NCBI GenBank assembly: GCA_049969675.1
Contig: JBMFOP010000002.1
Coordinates: forward strand, 1-64,000
DNA: 64,000 nt
Direction of reading: 5' to 3'
DNA from: Myxococcota bacterium
GTDB taxonomy: Bacteria > Myxococcota > SpSt-1050
Positions 21,001 through 27,000 of the stretch are shown here, piece by piece. Position 1 is the first letter of the stretch, and every line of letters begins with the position of its first letter. The position numbers are program-made.

Positions 21001-24000
21001 AACAATTGCATATCAACAACTCTGTGAATATAATAAATCTGTTCAGCCAATTGCAATTGTAAAGAGTGGAATCTTCAATGAGAGATTTATAAATATCCCG
21101 CTATATGTTGTAAACGATGAACATAGAGAATATATCGGACTGAAACTCTCTGTAAAATTAAAGAAGACAAAGGATACATTCATAATCAAATCTGATCCCG
21201 AAGGATTTGATGAAGGTATAAAAACCCAATTTATGCAGTACGAACATAGAGATATAGCCCTCGCCATTCAATCTCTGGATGAAGGTAAAGAGACAATAAA
21301 CACATGGGAATTTGATGTAAATCTACAATCTGATTCCATCTATAAAGTAGAAGATATTCAAATTAATGTAGAAGATATCTCAAAACCATCGCATTTTATC
21401 TTTGAGATGGAACTCTCAAACCAAAATGGTATTATTTCAAAAAACAGATATTCAATTGTATTTGCCAGCAAAGACTATATTGAATCTCTACCGTACGGAT
21501 TATCTCCAAAACCAGAATTTACTATTGAAATAAGTACTAAACTTACAAGACCTACAAACATTCCAGTCAAATTTTCACTGGAGAGGTTGTACAGTCTAAA
21601 GCCCGGCTACGGGGCAATCCTGTTTGGTGAGGACAGGAAGGTGCTTAAAAATCTTGAGCCCGGACTTTATAGACTAATCTATACTCATATGAACAATGAA
21701 AGGATAAAAGAATTTATTCCCTGCTCAGATATGAAGATTGAACTAATCATATAGAATTCAATTGTTTATACATACCCAAATATTGCCTCATCAATTTTGA
21801 TTTATAGAGTAGACCATCAATTGGATTTCAATCAGAAGTTTTTAATACCATTCATCAAATGAAAAACTAAAACCAATTTCTCATTTGCAACTGGCAATTG
21901 GCATCTCAGATTCATCCAATAGTTTGATAGGATATGGGAGAATTGAACCATCTGGAATCCTATCTATGTATTTCTTCCTGAATTCTGGTGTCTGCATACG
22001 GCACATCTGATGTCTCTTCTTATAGGCTGGATGATTTGTCATCCTTTCCCAGACAACCTTTGTGCCTTCTTCAACTGCATTTCCAAATGATATCGGCGTA
22101 AAGTCACAGGGGGTCATCTCTCCGTATGCGGTCATATAATATTGATTGTAAGCAGCAAAACAACCCATTGATATAGGAGAATTTACATAAGCCTGTGCAG
22201 TAAGCGTTGGATATTCCGGTTTCTTAAAATAATTTAAGGTATCACGCATAATCCCCTCCTTATCCTCAGCAGTCAGAAGGATATCGGTCTTTCTCATAAA
22301 TGCACCGGTGGGAACCGCATCAAATAAGACTATCTCACAGACACCAACATTCTTTCCGAGCTCCATCAGGTCATTGAGTTCACCTTTTTGATACCGTTCG
22401 TGTGTAATATATGAAGAGAAACCTACCATTATATCCAATTTTTTACAGGTCTCCACCGATTTCATTACTTTCTTATAAAGTCCAGGCCTCTTTCGGAGGT
22501 AGTCATGCTCTTCCTCATACGGCGAGTCAAGACTGATAAATATTGCATAAATACCTGCATCCTTTAATCTCTTTAGATTCTCTTCTGTATGCAATTCTCC
22601 ATTGGTGAACATAATTACAGTTGCCTTATCTTTATCTACAAACTCTACAAGTTCAAAGATATCCTTCCTGATGAGAGGTTCACCCCCGGTATAAATTATA
22701 TTTGTGCAACCCATCTCCACGGTATCATAGATAATCTTCTTCCACTGTTCTGTTGTAAGCCACTGCTTATCCGGATTCTTTGAGAGCTGTGCAGAGCAGT
22801 GATAACAATCAAGCTGACAGGCATATGTAAGTGCCAATGTGGCAGCCGCTGGAATCCTCTCTTTGAGATAGACCCTTCTCAATCTATATACAAGCTCTCT
22901 CTTCCCAGCCTTAGAAGGGAGCGGAGGTGCAAAGAATGAGACTGACCTTGCACCATTGTAATAACCAGCCACCTTAAATTTATTGAATCTATCTGTAGTC
23001 TTTACAACATAAGCAAAAGCCTCTTCGGGCATCTCACCGGTCTTCCTTGCCACAAGCCTACCATCCACGAGCTCAATCTCAAAATTTTCAAGCACCGATG
23101 GGTCACTCAATTCACATCTTCTCTCCATAATAAACTCCTTTCTAGTTTTAAGGTTTTTTAAATAATAAAATAATTTTTTTAAGTTCATTATACATAACTT
23201 TAAGATTTACTGAATCCCTTCTTACCCTCCACTGCAACAATGTCCCTTCCATTACACCTAAGAGAATGGCAGCAACCGCCTCACTATTCCCATCTATAAA
23301 GAAGCCTTCTTTAATTCCATCTCTCATAATATTATTAAGAATTTTCCTTATTGAGTCCTGAAGCTCAAAGATTATCTGATTTACTTTCTTATCTCGTACA
23401 CTCTGCCCCCAATACTCTATCCAGACTGCCATAAGTCCATACAGATCGTCCTCATCTCTCAATAGATGATAATCTACAAAGGCATTTAACTTCTCAACTG
23501 GAGTCTTAAATCTGCTAATATATTTATTCAGACCTGTCACATAATTATTGCTGAGCTGTCTCATTAATTCTGAAAGCATCTCATCCTTATTCTCAAAGTA
23601 ATAATGAATAATACCCCGTGCCACCCTGCTCTTCCTTGATATATCAGTAATAGAGGTCTTCAGGAATCCCTTTGATACGATACTCTTATAGAGACCGTTT
23701 AATATCTGCTCTCTTCTAAGTGGTGCTACTATTCTTCTACTCATTTAAGTTGGACATCCATCCAATTATTAATTATCCATATTCGGACTTATATTGTCAA
23801 GAAAATTTTGAAGCCTGTTAAATAAATTTGTTGAAATTTTGATTTTGTTGATATATAGAAGTTATCCTTAATATACGGGAGAGGCCGTGGAGATAAGACT
23901 TGAAGATTTTACAACAGCAGTAATTGAAAGGATAGAGGACTTTAAGCCTCAAATCATTGATAGCTGGCTTGCTGATTATGAAGGATATAGAAATTGTGGC

Positions 24001-27000
24001 GATATACGTACGAATGCCCATTTTACAAAGACCGGTACACAAATATTAATGCAGGCTGAACTTCACGGCAATATCATAGGAGTCTGTTCAAGGTGTCTTG
24101 AAGATGCTATTATACCAATTGACACTGACTTTACAATAATCTTTCTTCCCTCAAGTCAGCAGAGAAAATATACTGAGGATGAGGAAATAGAACTATTGAG
24201 CAATGAACTGGATTTTGAATATTATAAGGGGAACAAAATTGATGTGGATTATCTATTTAGAGAGAGTTTATTGCTTGCTATCCCTTATTCCCCTCTCTGC
24301 AGTGAATCCTGTAAGGGGCTATGTCAGGTCTGTGGTGGAAATCTCAATCGTAATGAATGTACCTGTAAAAAAGGCAAATCTGTTTTTAATAATATAAAAC
24401 TAAATCTGTTTTAAGAAAGGAGTTAGTCGTGGCTGTACCAAAGAGGAGAAAATCCAGATCAAAGAGAGATATGAGACGCTCTCAGTGGAAATTGTCCGCG
24501 GTCAATGTAATCACCTGCCCAAACTGTATGGAGCCTATGCTTCCACATCATATATGCCCGAGCTGCGGGTATTATAAGGGCAGGCAGATTATAGAAAAGG
24601 AAGAGGAGTAGCTTTTATTAAGGAGGGCATAACTACTATGAAGAAATTGACCCATTTTGTCTTTCTTTCCCTATTTGCAATCTCCTATTTCGGATGTTCA
24701 GATCCCTGTAGAGATGCAGCAGATAAGGTAAAGGACTGTCTTGAAAAGTTTTGTGAAAAATATGGACAAACTACAGATCAGGCTAAGATGAAGTGCTCTA
24801 CTTTCTACACCATCTGTCCTAATGGAGAGAATCCGGCCTGTGGTTTTGATTTTGACAGATGCAGCAAAGATAATTCACTTGCCGACCCCGTTCTTGACGG
24901 CAGGTGCGATGAGACCACTGGAGAGGTCAAAAAGTAGGAGGAAATCAACTGCATCAAATGGAGGAGATGATGCTAAACATTGAAAACACATTAAAAGAGA
25001 TTATTTCTGAAAAGACTGGCGCAAAGATTGATGATATCAAGATGAATACCCATTTTGTTGAAGACCTTGGTGCCGATTCTCTGGAGATTGTCAGAATCAT
25101 AATGGCGATTGAGGATAAATTCCACATTGAAATCCCGGATGAGGATATGGAGAAGATTGCAACCTTTCAGGACGCAATAAATTATATAAAGGCTAAATAC
25201 AAGGGATAATGTCAATCCAGAAAATATATATAGGTTCAGACCATGCAGGATTCTCCTATAAAGAGAAGATAAAGGAGTATCTGACCAATAGCGGTTATAC
25301 TGTGATTGACAAGGGGTGTGATAGTGAAGAGTCAGTTCATTATCCCATCTATGCCACATCTGTCTCAAAAGAGGTCTTAAAGGATACAGAGTCAGTCGGG
25401 ATACTTATCTGCGGTAGTGGTATAGGTATGAGTATAGCCGCAAATAAATATAAGGGTATTAGATGTGCGCTCTGCCTCAATGAATATATGGCTGAGATGA
25501 GCAGGAGACACAACAATGCCAATGTGCTATCTTTAGGCTCAAGGGTAATTGGGATTGACCTTGCCATTGCAATAGTAAGAAGATTTCTTGGTTCTGAATT
25601 TGAAGGCGGGAGACATCAGAAGAGGCTTGACCTGATATGCGAAGCCGAGAAATCTCAATAATCAAAAAGATTTTGCAAGACGAAGAGAGACGGCAGAGAG
25701 ATACTATCTGCCTCATTGCATCAGAAAATTACATCAGTAAAGAAGTAAAAAATGCTCTCTCCTCAGTGATTATTAATAAATATGCTGAAGGCGTTCCATT
25801 TAATAGACATTATCCGGGTTGTATGGAGGCTGATAGATTGGAATTATTCGGGGAGAGGCTTGCAAAGAGGCTATTTGGAGTTGAAGGGGCCAATCTTCAA
25901 CCATACTCCGGTTCAATCGCAAATCTAATTGCATTTAGAGCATTACTAAAAAAAGGTGATCGCGTTCTGGCTATGCATCCCTTTGATGGCGGGCATTCAA
26001 CACACGCCACAAAGTCAAATATAAGCGGAGAACTTTATAAGACATCCTTTTATAGGGTAGGTGGAGATGGCTTACTGGACTATGAAATCATTAGAAAGGT
26101 TGCTAAAAAGGTCAGACCAAATCTTATAATTGCTGGCTCAAGCCTTTACCCGCGCGAAATTGATTATAAAGCCTTTTATGATATTGCAAAAGAGAACGAT
26201 TCATACTTCCTTGCAGATATTGCTCATCCGGCTGGTTTTATTGCCGCAGGGCTACACAACTCCCCTGCAAAATATGCAGATATAATCACCTCCACAACAC
26301 ATAAGACCTTGCGGGGACCCAGAGGCGGACTCATAATGTTTAAGGAGAGTCTAAGAGGAGCCGTCTTCAGTGCCCTCTATCCCGGTGTTCAGGGAGGACC
26401 ACTTCTAAATCTCGTTGCCGCAAAGGCAGTAGCATTCTCTGAGGCACTGAGTAAAGACTTTAGAGAATATCAAAAACAGGTAATAAAAAACACATCTGTT
26501 CTTTGCGAGATGCTCAAAGAACGGGGATTCTCATTATATACTGGAGGAAGCTCAAATCACCTTATTGTAATTGACCTGAGACCAATAAAAATGGATGCCT
26601 CAAAGATAGAGAAGGAACTGGAAAAGATAAATATCACATCCAATGCGCTTCCCGTCCCGGGCAGAGATGGTACAACTATGGACGGACTCAGGATAGGGAC
26701 ATCTGCGATTACTACATCAGGATATACCGATACAGAGTTGAGGGAGATTGCTGAAATACTGTATCATCTGATAATCAGAAGAGATATAAATGAGGCTTCT
26801 CGAATACAGAAGAGACTAATAAGAAGAATCAAGAGCCATTAGCCAAGAGGAAAAATTATGGTAGATAAAATTCTAAAGGCACTATTTGGGACATATCACG
26901 AGAGGGAACTCAAAAGGATAGCACCAATTGTAGCAAAGATAAATGCCCTTGAAGAGGAGATAAAGAGACTCTCCGATGAGGAGATGAGACTCAGGACCAA

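Follow-up and report, generated by a model that had tools for sequence, protein, structure and literature searches.

The four genomes of a diderm Myxococcota genus (G000, the genome studied, with G001, G002 and G003) have probably lost every malonyl-dependent step of fatty-acid synthesis (FAS). Judged from gene content, the genus is likely to be a fatty-acid auxotroph that keeps acyl carrier protein (ACP) and lipid A synthesis. These uncultured, LPS-making bacteria have no known fatty-acid-building enzyme, yet their lipid A and lipoate pathways, which rely on ACP, are kept. Since these pathways stay and the synthase is gone, scavenged fatty acids would have to be loaded on ACP.

The fab operon is reduced in place

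In the window, the 64,000-nucleotide stretch of G000 DNA that was analysed, six genes of the former fab locus follow each other on the plus strand:

23887..24414, + strand: yceD (DUF177), the gene that opens the ancestral fab operon (PF02620, 91 bits); position kept in G001 to G004
24429..24611, + strand: rpmF, ribosomal protein L32 (phmmer against E. coli RpmF, E 2e-7); kept in relatives
24612..24957, + strand: interval between rpmF and acpP with the lipoprotein gene alone inside, flanked by gaps of 26 and 29 bp
24638..24937, + strand: 99-aa Cys-rich lipoprotein (lipobox Cys20 and eight invariant Cys)
24958..25209, + strand: acpP (TIGR00517, 87.6 bits, cut-off 70.45)
25207..25211, + strand: acpP-rpiB junction, stop overlapping start; the fabF site in FabF-bearing relatives
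25209..25661, + strand: rpiB, ribose-5-phosphate isomerase B, synteny anchor (ORF translation); kept downstream in relatives
25637..26842, + strand: glyA, serine hydroxymethyltransferase, synteny anchor (ORF translation; relatives' loci)

As no gap between these genes exceeds 29 bp, no space is left for fab genes. The order yceD-rpmF-lipoprotein-acpP-rpiB-glyA is common to all four genomes, so that the operon is indeed cut down to yceD-rpmF-lipoprotein-acpP as the initial annotation had claimed. It is also shared by the metagenome contigs L229 and L231; L230 gave match scores identical to the G002 locus and L232 is partial. The counterpart of the interval between rpmF and acpP is plsX-fabH-fabD-fabG in E. 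coli and fabD-lipoprotein-fabG in G004, which represents the sister family. The fabF site is occupied in G013 (acpP-fabF-rpiB-glyA) and G029 (fabF-rpiB-glyA), and acpP directly adjoins rpiB in G000 to G004 and G133.

The lipoprotein has no Pfam or NCBIfam match and is class-restricted (14 homologue clusters at 65-100%, three representative clusters at E≤1e-10). Its predicted model reaches a pLDDT of 87 and it aligns at 49% with the G004 copy. Because this copy sits between fabD and fabG, the lipoprotein is older than the total loss of FAS.

Fatty-acid synthesis genes are not found elsewhere in the genus

Using E. coli and Myxococcota queries in phmmer, no orthologue of FabH, FabF, FabB, FabD, FabZ, AccA/B/C/D or PlsX was detected in G000; the same holds for BirA in phmmer and for FabA in six-frame searches. 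When 20 FAS queries derived from relatives were run by tblastn against the raw G000 DNA including contig ends, no FAS gene was found, the matches being two SDRs (via FabG of G340) and two chance matches (E 0.2-0.5). Multi-sequence profiles of KS and KAS III returned thiolases only from G000, and those of AT and DH nothing. Three PF00109 matches in G000 (29, 24 and 16 bits) were rejected as KS, as they are located in three thiolases. The genome-wide tests for PlsX, FabI and FabG cover G000.

In the genus PF00698, PF01039 and PF07977 were found in none of the four genomes, and neither PF02801 nor PF08541 had a match above cut-off in any of them. TIGR03150 gave none in the three genus genomes searched, in contrast to a KS match in 344 of 355 genomes of the phylum. 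The fabZ gene is likewise deleted in place: a rubrerythrin-like gene comes after lpxD in all four genomes and a TPR gene before lpxA in 3/3, whereas seven of eleven relatives' fabZ loci examined read lpxD-fabZ-lpxA and two more lpxD-fabZ. In G004 fabH precedes an acyl-CoA dehydrogenase gene; it is absent upstream of the orthologue in G001 and G002, and in G000 and G003 the contig ends there. Thus both earlier claims, that G000 has no FASII enzyme, carboxylase or PlsX and that FASII loss extends over the genus, were confirmed, the first by phmmer, tblastn and profiles, the second by family searches and in-place deletions.

The remaining ACP is remodelled

The acpP product is the only ACP found in G000 (one true DSL motif among six motif matches). 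In E. coli numbering, Ser36 is intact (codon 25078-25080), and helix II shows Glu41 exchanged for Arg (25093-25095) and Glu49 for Lys (25117-25119). Arg41 occurs in all four genomes and on two additional contigs, whereas each of the 35 other ACPs read has Glu41; three loci fetched for this survey yielded no ACP match. The net charge is -7 in G000 compared to -15 in E. coli and G004, and the protein is 89-90% identical across the genus, compared to 64-81% for yceD, lipoprotein, rpiB and glyA. Glu41 of ACP is reported to form a salt bridge with FabD Lys189/Arg190 (10.1101/2020.05.15.098798). Once FabD, FabH and FabF were gone, the fit of helix II may have relaxed, which would have allowed Glu41 to become Arg. 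Loss of Glu41 is no automatic result of FAS loss, since G328 keeps it though without KS, FabH and carboxylase.

Pathways that depend on acyl-ACP are kept

G000 has LpxA (325.7 bits) and LpxD (363.1 bits), both above cut-off, LpxI, two LpxL-type acyltransferases, PlsB, PlsC and a divergent AcpS (59.0 bits, cut-off 59.8), in addition to LpxB, LpxC, LpxK, WaaA and MsbA. LpxD is full-length in all four genomes and LpxC present in all three genus relatives of G000; LpxA, found in three genomes, LpxC and LipB are full-length, without stops and above cut-off. G001 lacks both lpxA and the adjoining lpxI, yet has lpxC and lpxD. The lipid A pathway described in the initial annotation is therefore kept in G000, but LpxA in only three of the four genomes. 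Retention of ACP, AcpS, PlsB, PlsY and PlsC in G000 was borne out.

The lipoyl system of G000 consists of LipA, LipB, GcvH/P/T and Lpd. GcvH and, above cut-off, LipB were detected in all four genomes, LipB as the sole LplA/B-family match. Going by these sequences, LipB/LipA would constitute a demand for octanoyl-ACP beyond lipid A, which the initial annotation had overlooked together with the orphan state of PlsY. PlsY is kept in 4/4 genomes and is left an orphan, as FakB/DegV was found in none of five genomes and PlsX not in G000. The four FadL-type channels known for G000 (PF03349) are joined by a fifth found by jackhmmer, and the beta-oxidation set is full. The "many ceramidases" were not confirmed: one motif scan, a weak test, gave no match.

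Possible routes of acyl groups to ACP

In-place deletions and the remodelled ACP back the earlier reading of a fatty-acid auxotroph with an outer membrane. Fatty acids would be imported with the help of the FadL-type channels and lipases and converted by FadD to acyl-CoA, from which PlsB and PlsC, all encoded in G000, would make phosphatidic acid without ACP; acyl-CoA is a donor for both acyltransferases in E. coli. ACP may be kept solely as a carrier delivering to LpxA, LpxD, the LpxL-type acyltransferases and LipB. Ready-made chains would be loaded directly, octanoate for lipoate and, for lipid A, most likely (R)-3-hydroxy acids freed from other cells' envelope lipids.

A recognised acyl-ACP synthetase was not found in G000, in agreement with the initial annotation. 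With somewhat less than even confidence we propose an AasS-like activity as loader, with a 565-aa adenylate-forming protein (G000:C124:4684-6381, conserved in the genus) as first and FadD (C47:8511) as second candidate. The 565-aa protein matches AasS with 86 bits, less than several CoA ligases reach, no ACP gene adjoins it, and its family is widespread, members from Syntrophales, Spirochaetota and other groups being 65-73% identical. AasS-type enzymes are described as several unrelated acyl-activating enzymes, of which V. harveyi AasS feeds lipid A (PMC11271967). A 431-aa candidate ends before the C-terminal domain in all four genomes. It is rather unlikely that a butyrate-kinase/phosphotransacylase fusion (C4:36772-39147) is the loader, acting like FakAB plus PlsX; if true, it would feed the orphan PlsY as well.

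A scavenger might also do without acylated ACP if LpxA, LpxD, LpxL and LipB now used acyl-CoA, with ACP a relic or in another job and 3-hydroxyacyl-CoA drawn from beta-oxidation through a PhaJ-like hydratase or an SDR. G000 does encode a PhaJ-like protein that has the Asp/His motif (G000:C65:10103), beside the full beta-oxidation set. This candidate of the initial annotation most resembles PhaJ1 of Pseudomonas and PhaJ of Aeromonas, both short-chain enzymes, and is thus weak as a source of C12-C16 3-hydroxy chains. The changed ACP surface, the AcpS score just below cut-off and the missing acyl-ACP synthetase also speak for acyl-CoA donors; however, Ser36 and AcpS are retained, ACP is better conserved than its neighbours, and the C-terminal basic patch of LpxA is kept. 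We consider this exchange of donors unlikely.

More doubtful is de novo synthesis by a malonyl-free CoA route (archaeal ketothiolase/DUF35 or reverse beta-oxidation) or an unrecognised synthase, with transfer to ACP. The archaeal ACP-independent synthase combines KT/DUF35, ACR, MaoC-HCD and MDR ECR, and the pathway is reported to yield C6-C10 chains (10.1101/2024.07.05.601840). Similar parts exist in G000, namely a MaoC-like hydratase, an SDR and three classical thiolases, together with the PRK06065/PRK06066 thiolase pair and two DUF35 proteins; pair and DUF35 proteins are conserved in 5/5 class genomes and 93-96% identical within the genus. But the parts are scattered, and the PRK06065 subunit reads FVGGGTG in place of the nucleophilic CASG motif, at which site its partner by eye shows no Cys either, so that the pair looks aldolase-type, not Claisen. 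Further, an E. coli YhdH query found no MDR enoyl reductase, scans for Ter/FabV, FabK and ELO motifs, a weak test, gave nothing, and the presence of four to five FadL channels agrees with uptake.

An assembly or binning artefact, in which the FAS genes had been moved or replaced by a horizontally acquired island left out of all four bins, is very improbable. The genomes are MAGs (99.9, 97, 97 and 85% complete) and fragmented, G000 having 188 contigs with an N50 of 28 kb. Gaps do occur, as the missing lpxA-lpxI of G001 shows, a compositionally odd island could escape related bins alike, and single absences can be false, as in G004, where PF03099 gave no match despite the presence of biotin enzymes. 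However, an assembly gap is unlikely because the fab genes are gone in place in all four operons, and genes are gone in place at at least three separate mid-contig loci. Four separate assemblies missed all five gene families, G004 yielded no FabF or FabZ either, and an Arg41 ACP would be a poor fit to FabD (10.1101/2020.05.15.098798).

Least probable of all are lipid A and lipoate genes as decaying leftovers, with no LPS made and ACP not acylated: G001 lacks lpxA and lpxI, and several other KS-less Myxococcota (G328, G329, G331, G336, G337 and G340) lack LpxA above cut-off, but the full-length, stop-free genes described above and the presence of LpxB, LpxK, LpxI, WaaA and MsbA in G000 argue against decay.

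Comparison with known systems

Borrelia and Treponema pallidum, diderms without LPS, and CPR bacteria have lost fatty-acid synthesis altogether and scavenge lipids; they are not known to make lipid A and would therefore need no 3-hydroxyacyl-ACP. For the Bradymonabacteria (Bradymonadales), a partly lost FASII combined with FadL scavenging has already been published, with prey as the proposed source of the fatty acids (Mu et al. 2020, PMC7460792). Assigned to Myxococcota (PMC11509652), they resemble the genus as diderms with incomplete FASII and several fadL. Only FabB/F and FabI/L are reported missing there, though supplements may list more, and the main text neither contains the word "lipid" nor discusses lipid A supply (PMC7460792). 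The total loss described here is new and more extreme, as it includes FabH, FabD, FabG, FabZ, carboxylase and PKS-type KS, and the ACP is remodelled.

The activity that an auxotrophic genus needs is that of V. harveyi AasS, AasC, AasN, SynAas and AfAas1/2, which put free fatty acids on ACP; in the case of AasS the chains go into phospholipids and lipid A (PMC11271967). There it is a FASII bypass, whereas in the genus, which has no clear orthologue (best 86 bits to AasS), loading would be the sole acyl-ACP source. In the Gram-positive FakAB-PlsX-PlsY route PlsY uses acyl-phosphate, and Enterococcus faecalis AcpB is an ACP with distinct helix II for exogenous fatty acids (PMC6509188). The genus differs by the missing FakB/DegV and, in G000, PlsX, and its ACP is the sole operon AcpP, with lipid A enzymes and LipB as the presumed main clients.

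The sister family may hold an intermediate stage

G004 keeps carboxylase (carboxyltransferase, AccB/C), FabD, FabH-like enzymes, FabG and ACP. FabF and FabZ were not found in it (locus of 65% GC), so that their loss reaches beyond the genus. This gene set may be an intermediate stage of FAS loss. A precedent is the Pseudomonas PA3286/Ralstonia FabW shunt, which forms 3-ketoacyl-ACP for LPS from acyl-CoA and malonyl-ACP (PMC4549310). It matches the genes remaining in G004 and would work there without FabF or FabZ, but it needs malonyl-ACP and KAS III, both absent from the genus of G000. In the likely history, elongation by FabF and FabZ would have been lost first, at class level, leaving FabH/FabD/FabG as a one-step shunt that turned acyl-CoA into 3-hydroxyacyl-ACP, the presumed state of G004; the genus would afterwards have dropped this shunt and all biotin enzymes. 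G133 looks similar to G004.

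Gene order at the shortened fab operon

The genome under study, G000, is a bin of 3.05 Mb in 188 contigs with 38.9% GC and a completeness rating of 99.91%. Reading the ORFs of the window gave six closely packed genes from yceD to glyA, all on the + strand:

23887-24414, + strand, yceD
24429-24611, + strand, rpmF
24638-24937, + strand, 99-aa lipoprotein
24958-25209, + strand, acpP
25209-25661, + strand, rpiB
25637-26842, + strand, glyA

The E. coli counterpart has the order yceD-rpmF-plsX-fabH-fabD-fabG-acpP-fabF, and Myxococcota relatives show fabD-fabG-acpP-fabF (G011, G020) or acpP-fabF-rpiB-glyA (G013). 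The initial annotation described an operon reduced to yceD-rpmF-lipoprotein-acpP, and this is what we find: the shortened order is identical in the three other genomes of the genus (G001, G002, G003) and on two metagenome contigs (L229, L231).

The glyA gene shares 44% identity with that of G133, a genome from another family, and about 73% within the genus; in G003 it is broken into two ORFs, and in the sister-family genome G004 it is not part of the operon. A hot-spring metagenome run shares 86% of the words of the stretch; it may be the source sample and does not count as independent support.

Fatty-acid synthase genes are absent from G000 and its genus

In local searches of the six-frame translation of G000, E. 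coli and Myxococcota queries for FabH, FabF, FabB, FabD, FabZ, AccA/B/C/D and PlsX yielded no orthologue, and the positive controls LpxA, LpxD, BamA, FadI and FadJ reached 148-245 bits in the same search. A BirA query gave no match in this translation either. With tblastn, 20 queries derived from relatives were run against the G000 DNA including contig ends and found only two SDRs and two chance matches. Profiles built from 2-7 aligned sequences retrieved only thiolases from G000 for KS and KAS III, those for AT and dehydratase retrieved nothing, and scans for active-site motifs of AT, FabH and KS were empty or gave chance matches. The PF00109 matches in G000 all sit in three thiolases. These searches agree with the initial annotation, which had stated that ketoacyl-ACP synthase, FabD, FabZ/FabA, carboxylase and PlsX are lacking and that the PF00109 signals are mere thiolase cross-matches.

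The FabZ/FabA dehydratase of a type II synthase was not found in G000 and its class. For the enoyl reductase, a FabI query reached only a generic SDR in G000, and FabV and FabK were covered by motif scan, with no match. The operon of G000 holds no fabG. The best SDR of the genome (C13:16077) scored 216.8 on TIGR01830, below the cut-off of 297.75, with PRK07035 as its top-scoring family, and may have ketoacyl reductase activity.

The same absence had been claimed for the other three genomes of the genus, and it holds there as judged by a genome tool that scores first-look candidates only. FabD (PF00698), carboxyltransferase (PF01039) and FabZ/FabA (PF07977) were found in 0/4 genus genomes, the last in 0/5 genomes of the class (the genus plus G004). 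No match above cut-off was obtained in the genus for the KS C-terminal domain PF02801 (0/4; 0/5 in the class) or the KAS III C-terminal domain PF08541 (0/4), for which G004 has four matches above cut-off. FabF-type KS (TIGR03150) is absent from G000, G001, G002 and G004. Single absences call for caution, as lpxA and lpxI are both missing from G001 and PF03099 was undetected in G004 despite the biotin enzymes of that genome.

Across the phylum, 344 of 355 genomes of at least 90% completeness (including the unpublished G240) have a KS match at E<=1e-30, and the FabF cut-off is passed by 303. No KS match was obtained in the remaining 11: G000, G001, G002, G004, G133, G328, G329, G331, G336, G337 and G340.

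Deletions are visible in place at further loci despite assembly gaps. A rubrerythrin-like gene follows lpxD in 4/4 genus genomes and a TPR gene precedes lpxA in 3/3, at the place of fabZ; the order lpxD-fabZ-lpxA is found at 7/11 fabZ loci of relatives. Likewise, an acyl-CoA dehydrogenase gene that is preceded by fabH in G004 has orthologues in G001 and G002 with no fabH upstream.

Seven mostly small genomes of 0.5-3.8 Mb (G328, G329, G331, G336, G337, G340 and G019) also have no FabF-type KS and no LpxA above cut-off. G019 is 89% complete and has only a weak KS match. Canonical ACP is retained in G328, G331, G337 and G340, the last of which also keeps fabD-fabG-acpP.

The acyl carrier protein carries Arg41 in place of the acidic Glu41

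The product of the operon's acpP is the sole ACP detected in G000. It scores 87.6 on TIGR00517 (cut-off 70.45), has an intact DSL Ser36 and shows 89-90% identity between the genomes of the genus. The cognate AcpS reaches 64.1 on TIGR00556 (cut-off 45.35) and 59.0 on TIGR00516 (cut-off 59.8); in its DI(x)4R motif the Arg is conserved, and the preceding Glu is changed to Tyr. This agrees with the initial annotation, which noted that ACP and AcpS are kept.

Helix II of this ACP lacks the acidic Glu41: Arg41 and Lys49 are present in 4/4 genus genomes and in L229 and L231. All 35 other ACPs that could be read (E. coli and 34 Myxococcota; three further loci yielded no ACP match) carry Glu41, and the net charge of the ACP is -7 versus -15 for those of E. 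coli and G004. According to the report on the AcpP-FabD structure, Glu41 pairs with Lys189/Arg190 of FabD, and the K189E swap in FabD nearly abolishes crosslinking to AcpP (10.1101/2020.05.15.098798). Arg41 would therefore be expected after the loss of FabD, and the substitution, as read from the sequences, is assembly-independent evidence that the FAS loss is real and old. This argument is limited by G328, which keeps Glu41 though it has no KS, FabH or carboxylase, and by the four genus genomes representing one event. Examined for charge changes that might compensate for Arg41, LpxA and LpxD show some genus-specific losses of basic residues, but several of these are shared with relatives that have a normal ACP.

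Lipid A, lipoate and phospholipid genes are retained

The genes of the Raetz pathway are intact in G000, as had been annotated. LpxA scores 325.7 bits (cut-off 231) and LpxD 363.1 (cut-off 242.5); LpxB, LpxC, LpxI, LpxK, WaaA, MsbA and two LpxL-type late acyltransferases were found as well, together with PlsB, PlsC and FadD. FadL-type channels, of which the initial annotation named four, number four to five in this genome. In the genus relatives LpxC and LpxD are present in 3/3, LpxA and LpxI in 2/3.

LipB occurs in 4/4 genus genomes as the only LplA/B-family protein, and so does GcvH; LipA, GcvP, GcvT and Lpd are encoded in G000. The LipB/LipA route to lipoate needs octanoyl-ACP. PlsY is also kept in 4/4 genus genomes. 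With FakB/DegV found in 0/5 class genomes and no PlsX in G000, no recognised source of acyl-phosphate is left for PlsY. Of the FakAB-PlsX-PlsY route G000 has PlsY but neither FakB/DegV nor PlsX.

At C55:7684-11065 (L084), and also in G002-G004, a gene for a Gfo/Idh/MocA dehydrogenase comes after lpxA-lpxI, with a below-cut-off NCBIfam match to UDP-GlcNAc 3-dehydrogenase; this hints at a lipid A based on diamino-glucose, in which more of the chains would be amide-linked. LpxD (C83:660-1799, L095) is extended in 4/4 genus genomes by about 45 basic, His-rich residues at the C-terminus; the extension ends in a conserved GFSN(R/K)PF motif and is absent from aligned relatives.

Graded loss in related lineages

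G004 (6.3 Mb, 94% complete) has the order yceD-rpmF-fabD-lipoprotein-fabG-acpP-rpiB. FabF and FabZ were not found in it with TIGR03150, PF02801 and PF07977. It keeps LpxA, LpxC and FabH-like genes, one of which adjoins carboxyltransferase, accC and accB. The loci are L031:7000-11711, L197 and L198, and the ACP of G004 is normal. This gene set could suffice for one condensation of scavenged acyl-CoA with malonyl-ACP, followed by reduction to 3-hydroxyacyl-ACP, a possible single-step shunt that would supply lipid A. PA3286 and FabW work in this way (PMC4549310).

G133 (6.2 Mb, 98% complete) has acpP-rpiB-glyA and adjacent lpxD-lpxA (L195:6835-9202; L103), so that fabF and fabZ are absent from their usual places. 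It keeps FabH, carboxyltransferase, LpxA, LpxC and LipB; PlsY was not found in this genome. G133 has probably reached the stage seen in G004 independently. Family f4 also departs from canonical FASII: 17/17 of its KS matches lie below the FabF cut-off, and LpxC is present in 6/6 genomes tested. The genus of G000 is the only tested lineage that has lipid A genes but no carboxylase, FabD and FabH. The order of gene loss that we infer runs from an intact FAS over a FabH-only shunt (G004, G133) to nothing (genus of G000) and offers a model for the stepwise loss of a housekeeping pathway.

Could another synthase or carrier replace FAS?

The 8-Cys lipoprotein encoded at 24638-24937 was confined to the class in the searches run, and in both families its gene is part of the fab operon. 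It also occurs in G004, which retains FabD and FabG, and is therefore not a replacement acquired at total FAS loss. Structure comparison gave no support for a lipid carrier, saposin-like or other: Foldseek gave no match at E<=0.001, and the best VIA-align hit had a Z of 4.1 with an rmsd of 7.2 A over 79 residues. Its atlas matches at 0.81-0.82, under the lead level of 0.9, are unnamed Myxococcota lipoproteins.

A synthase of the archaeal CoA-based type, with the system of 10.1101/2024.07.05.601840 as comparison model, seemed possible because a thiolase pair and DUF35 partners are kept in 5/5 class genomes. In G000 the pair PRK06066/PRK06065 and two DUF35 proteins are encoded at C6:30664-34032 (L091) and are 93-96% identical in the genus; G004 has the same pair, with its second thiolase fused to DUF35 domains. 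The nucleophilic Cys that a ketothiolase of such a synthase carries is replaced in the G000 thiolase, and the candidate was rejected on this ground. For an MDR enoyl-CoA reductase the single query YhdH gave no match; two MDR motif matches are present in G000, one of them in an ORF adjoining a Kbl/BioF-like gene. A de novo synthase of unrecognised type we consider highly improbable.

Proposed route and candidate loading enzymes

In the favoured reading, that of a scavenger loading ready-made chains onto a remodelled ACP, fatty acids would enter via FadL and be converted by FadD to acyl-CoA, from which PlsB and PlsC would make phospholipids. ACP would remain as the carrier that brings chains to LpxA, LpxD, LpxL and LipB and would have to be loaded directly.

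Three adenylate-forming enzymes are conserved in 4/4 genus genomes: a 565-aa ligase (C124:4684), a 431-aa protein (C46:13689) and a 475-aa F390/PaaK-like protein (C100:1139). None is a clear Aas orthologue, and no candidate in G000 reaches an Aas-type NCBIfam cut-off. The comparison covered E. coli Aas and AasS: a query with the former matched only FadD-like and PlsC domains, and the 565-aa ligase scored 86 bits to the latter. The known acyl-ACP synthetases (AasS, AasC, AasN, SynAas, AfAas) comprise several distinct acyl-activating enzymes, of which AasS feeds lipid A (PMC11271967). A genome scan for the 565-aa ligase returned only three loci, all from close relatives; as a genus-specific Aas it was rejected, its family being widespread. 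The 431-aa protein (C46:13689-14984, L076:1190-2485; 72-81% in 4/4 genus genomes) is an AMP-binding protein that stops short of the C-terminal domain and is possibly a non-catalytic binder of fatty acids or nucleotides. Further candidate loaders are a FadD (C47:8511), the GH3 protein at C15:13461 and, with acyl-CoA as donor, the thiolases or E2-like proteins.

The second candidate is a divergent butyrate-kinase/phosphotransacylase (Buk-Ptb) fusion (C4:36772-39147) with eight homologue clusters at 70-83% identity. Ptb and PlsX are related in fold. The fusion could make acyl-phosphate for PlsY, and acyl-ACP too, if ACP were accepted as by PlsX. In the gcvH neighbourhoods of G001-G003 it does not stand beside gcvH.

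A PhaJ-like protein had been put forward as a source of 3-hydroxyacyl chains. The protein is present in G000 and is closest to PhaJ1-type hydratases, which are short-chain enzymes, so that the reuse of ready-made 3-hydroxy acids is the more likely source. In its most specific form the proposal holds that lipid A and lipoate are made without any malonyl chemistry by an undescribed acyl-ACP loading: (R)-3-hydroxy acids and octanoate of other cells would pass straight onto the charge-reversed ACP through a non-Aas loader, e.g., the lineage-conserved Buk-Ptb fusion, which would replace FakAB and PlsX and feed PlsY. We regard this version as tentative and, on balance, unlikely.

An operon at C15:13461-17328 (L085) encodes a GH3 acyl-adenylating protein and a DUF2505 protein, together with two E2-type acyltransferase catalytic domains that stand alone and have no lipoyl domain. 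The GH3 protein has a weak NCBIfam match to the lyso-ornithine lipid synthetase OlsH, and free fatty acids may be turned into aminolipids by this operon.

Comparison with known fatty-acid scavengers

Bradymonabacteria, as reported by Mu et al. 2020 (PMC7460792; see also PMC11509652), have no FabB/F and FabI/L, carry many fadL genes and probably obtain their fatty acids from prey; therefore a fatty-acid-scavenging diderm of the Myxococcota is already known. G000 resembles them, by the description in PMC7460792, in having no FabB/F or FabI/L and several FadL. The FAS loss in the genus of G000 is real and more extreme than in that case: what is new is a total loss, in which FabH, FabD and carboxylase have gone too while the genes for lipid A and lipoylation persist. 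In mainly open-access literature, main texts, we found no report of such a total loss, and in similar coverage none of LpxA acting with hydroxymyristoyl-CoA.

FASII is held to be indispensable in Gram-negatives since its beta-hydroxyacyl product is essential, as stated in PMC11271967; this product supplies lipid A. The case for FASII as a drug target rests in part on this indispensability. A lineage of 3 Mb in which lipid A and de novo lipoylation persist with neither FAS nor carboxylase would provide a counter-example from nature, and only a few small proteins would be needed to test directly how 3-hydroxyacyl-ACP can arise without FASII. If the novel loading route were true, this would be an LPS bacterium whose diet dictates its lipid A chains. 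For cultivation, the prediction is that lipids, including 3-hydroxy acids and octanoate, have to be supplied.

Signs that might bear on a predatory, prey-dependent lifestyle are incidental: G000 encodes four prepilin-type N-termini, and 108/2382 ORFs are lipobox-like. Two gene sets, named by eye from translations and from E. coli matches, were also seen: one at C1:15444-19830 resembles lysine fermentation (genes like those for KamA, lysine 5,6-aminomutase and Kce), and the other, at C29:26626-31656, is a cluster for 3-hydroxybutyryl-CoA dehydrogenase, crotonase and acyl-CoA dehydrogenase. Together, they suggest an anaerobic amino-acid fermenter.
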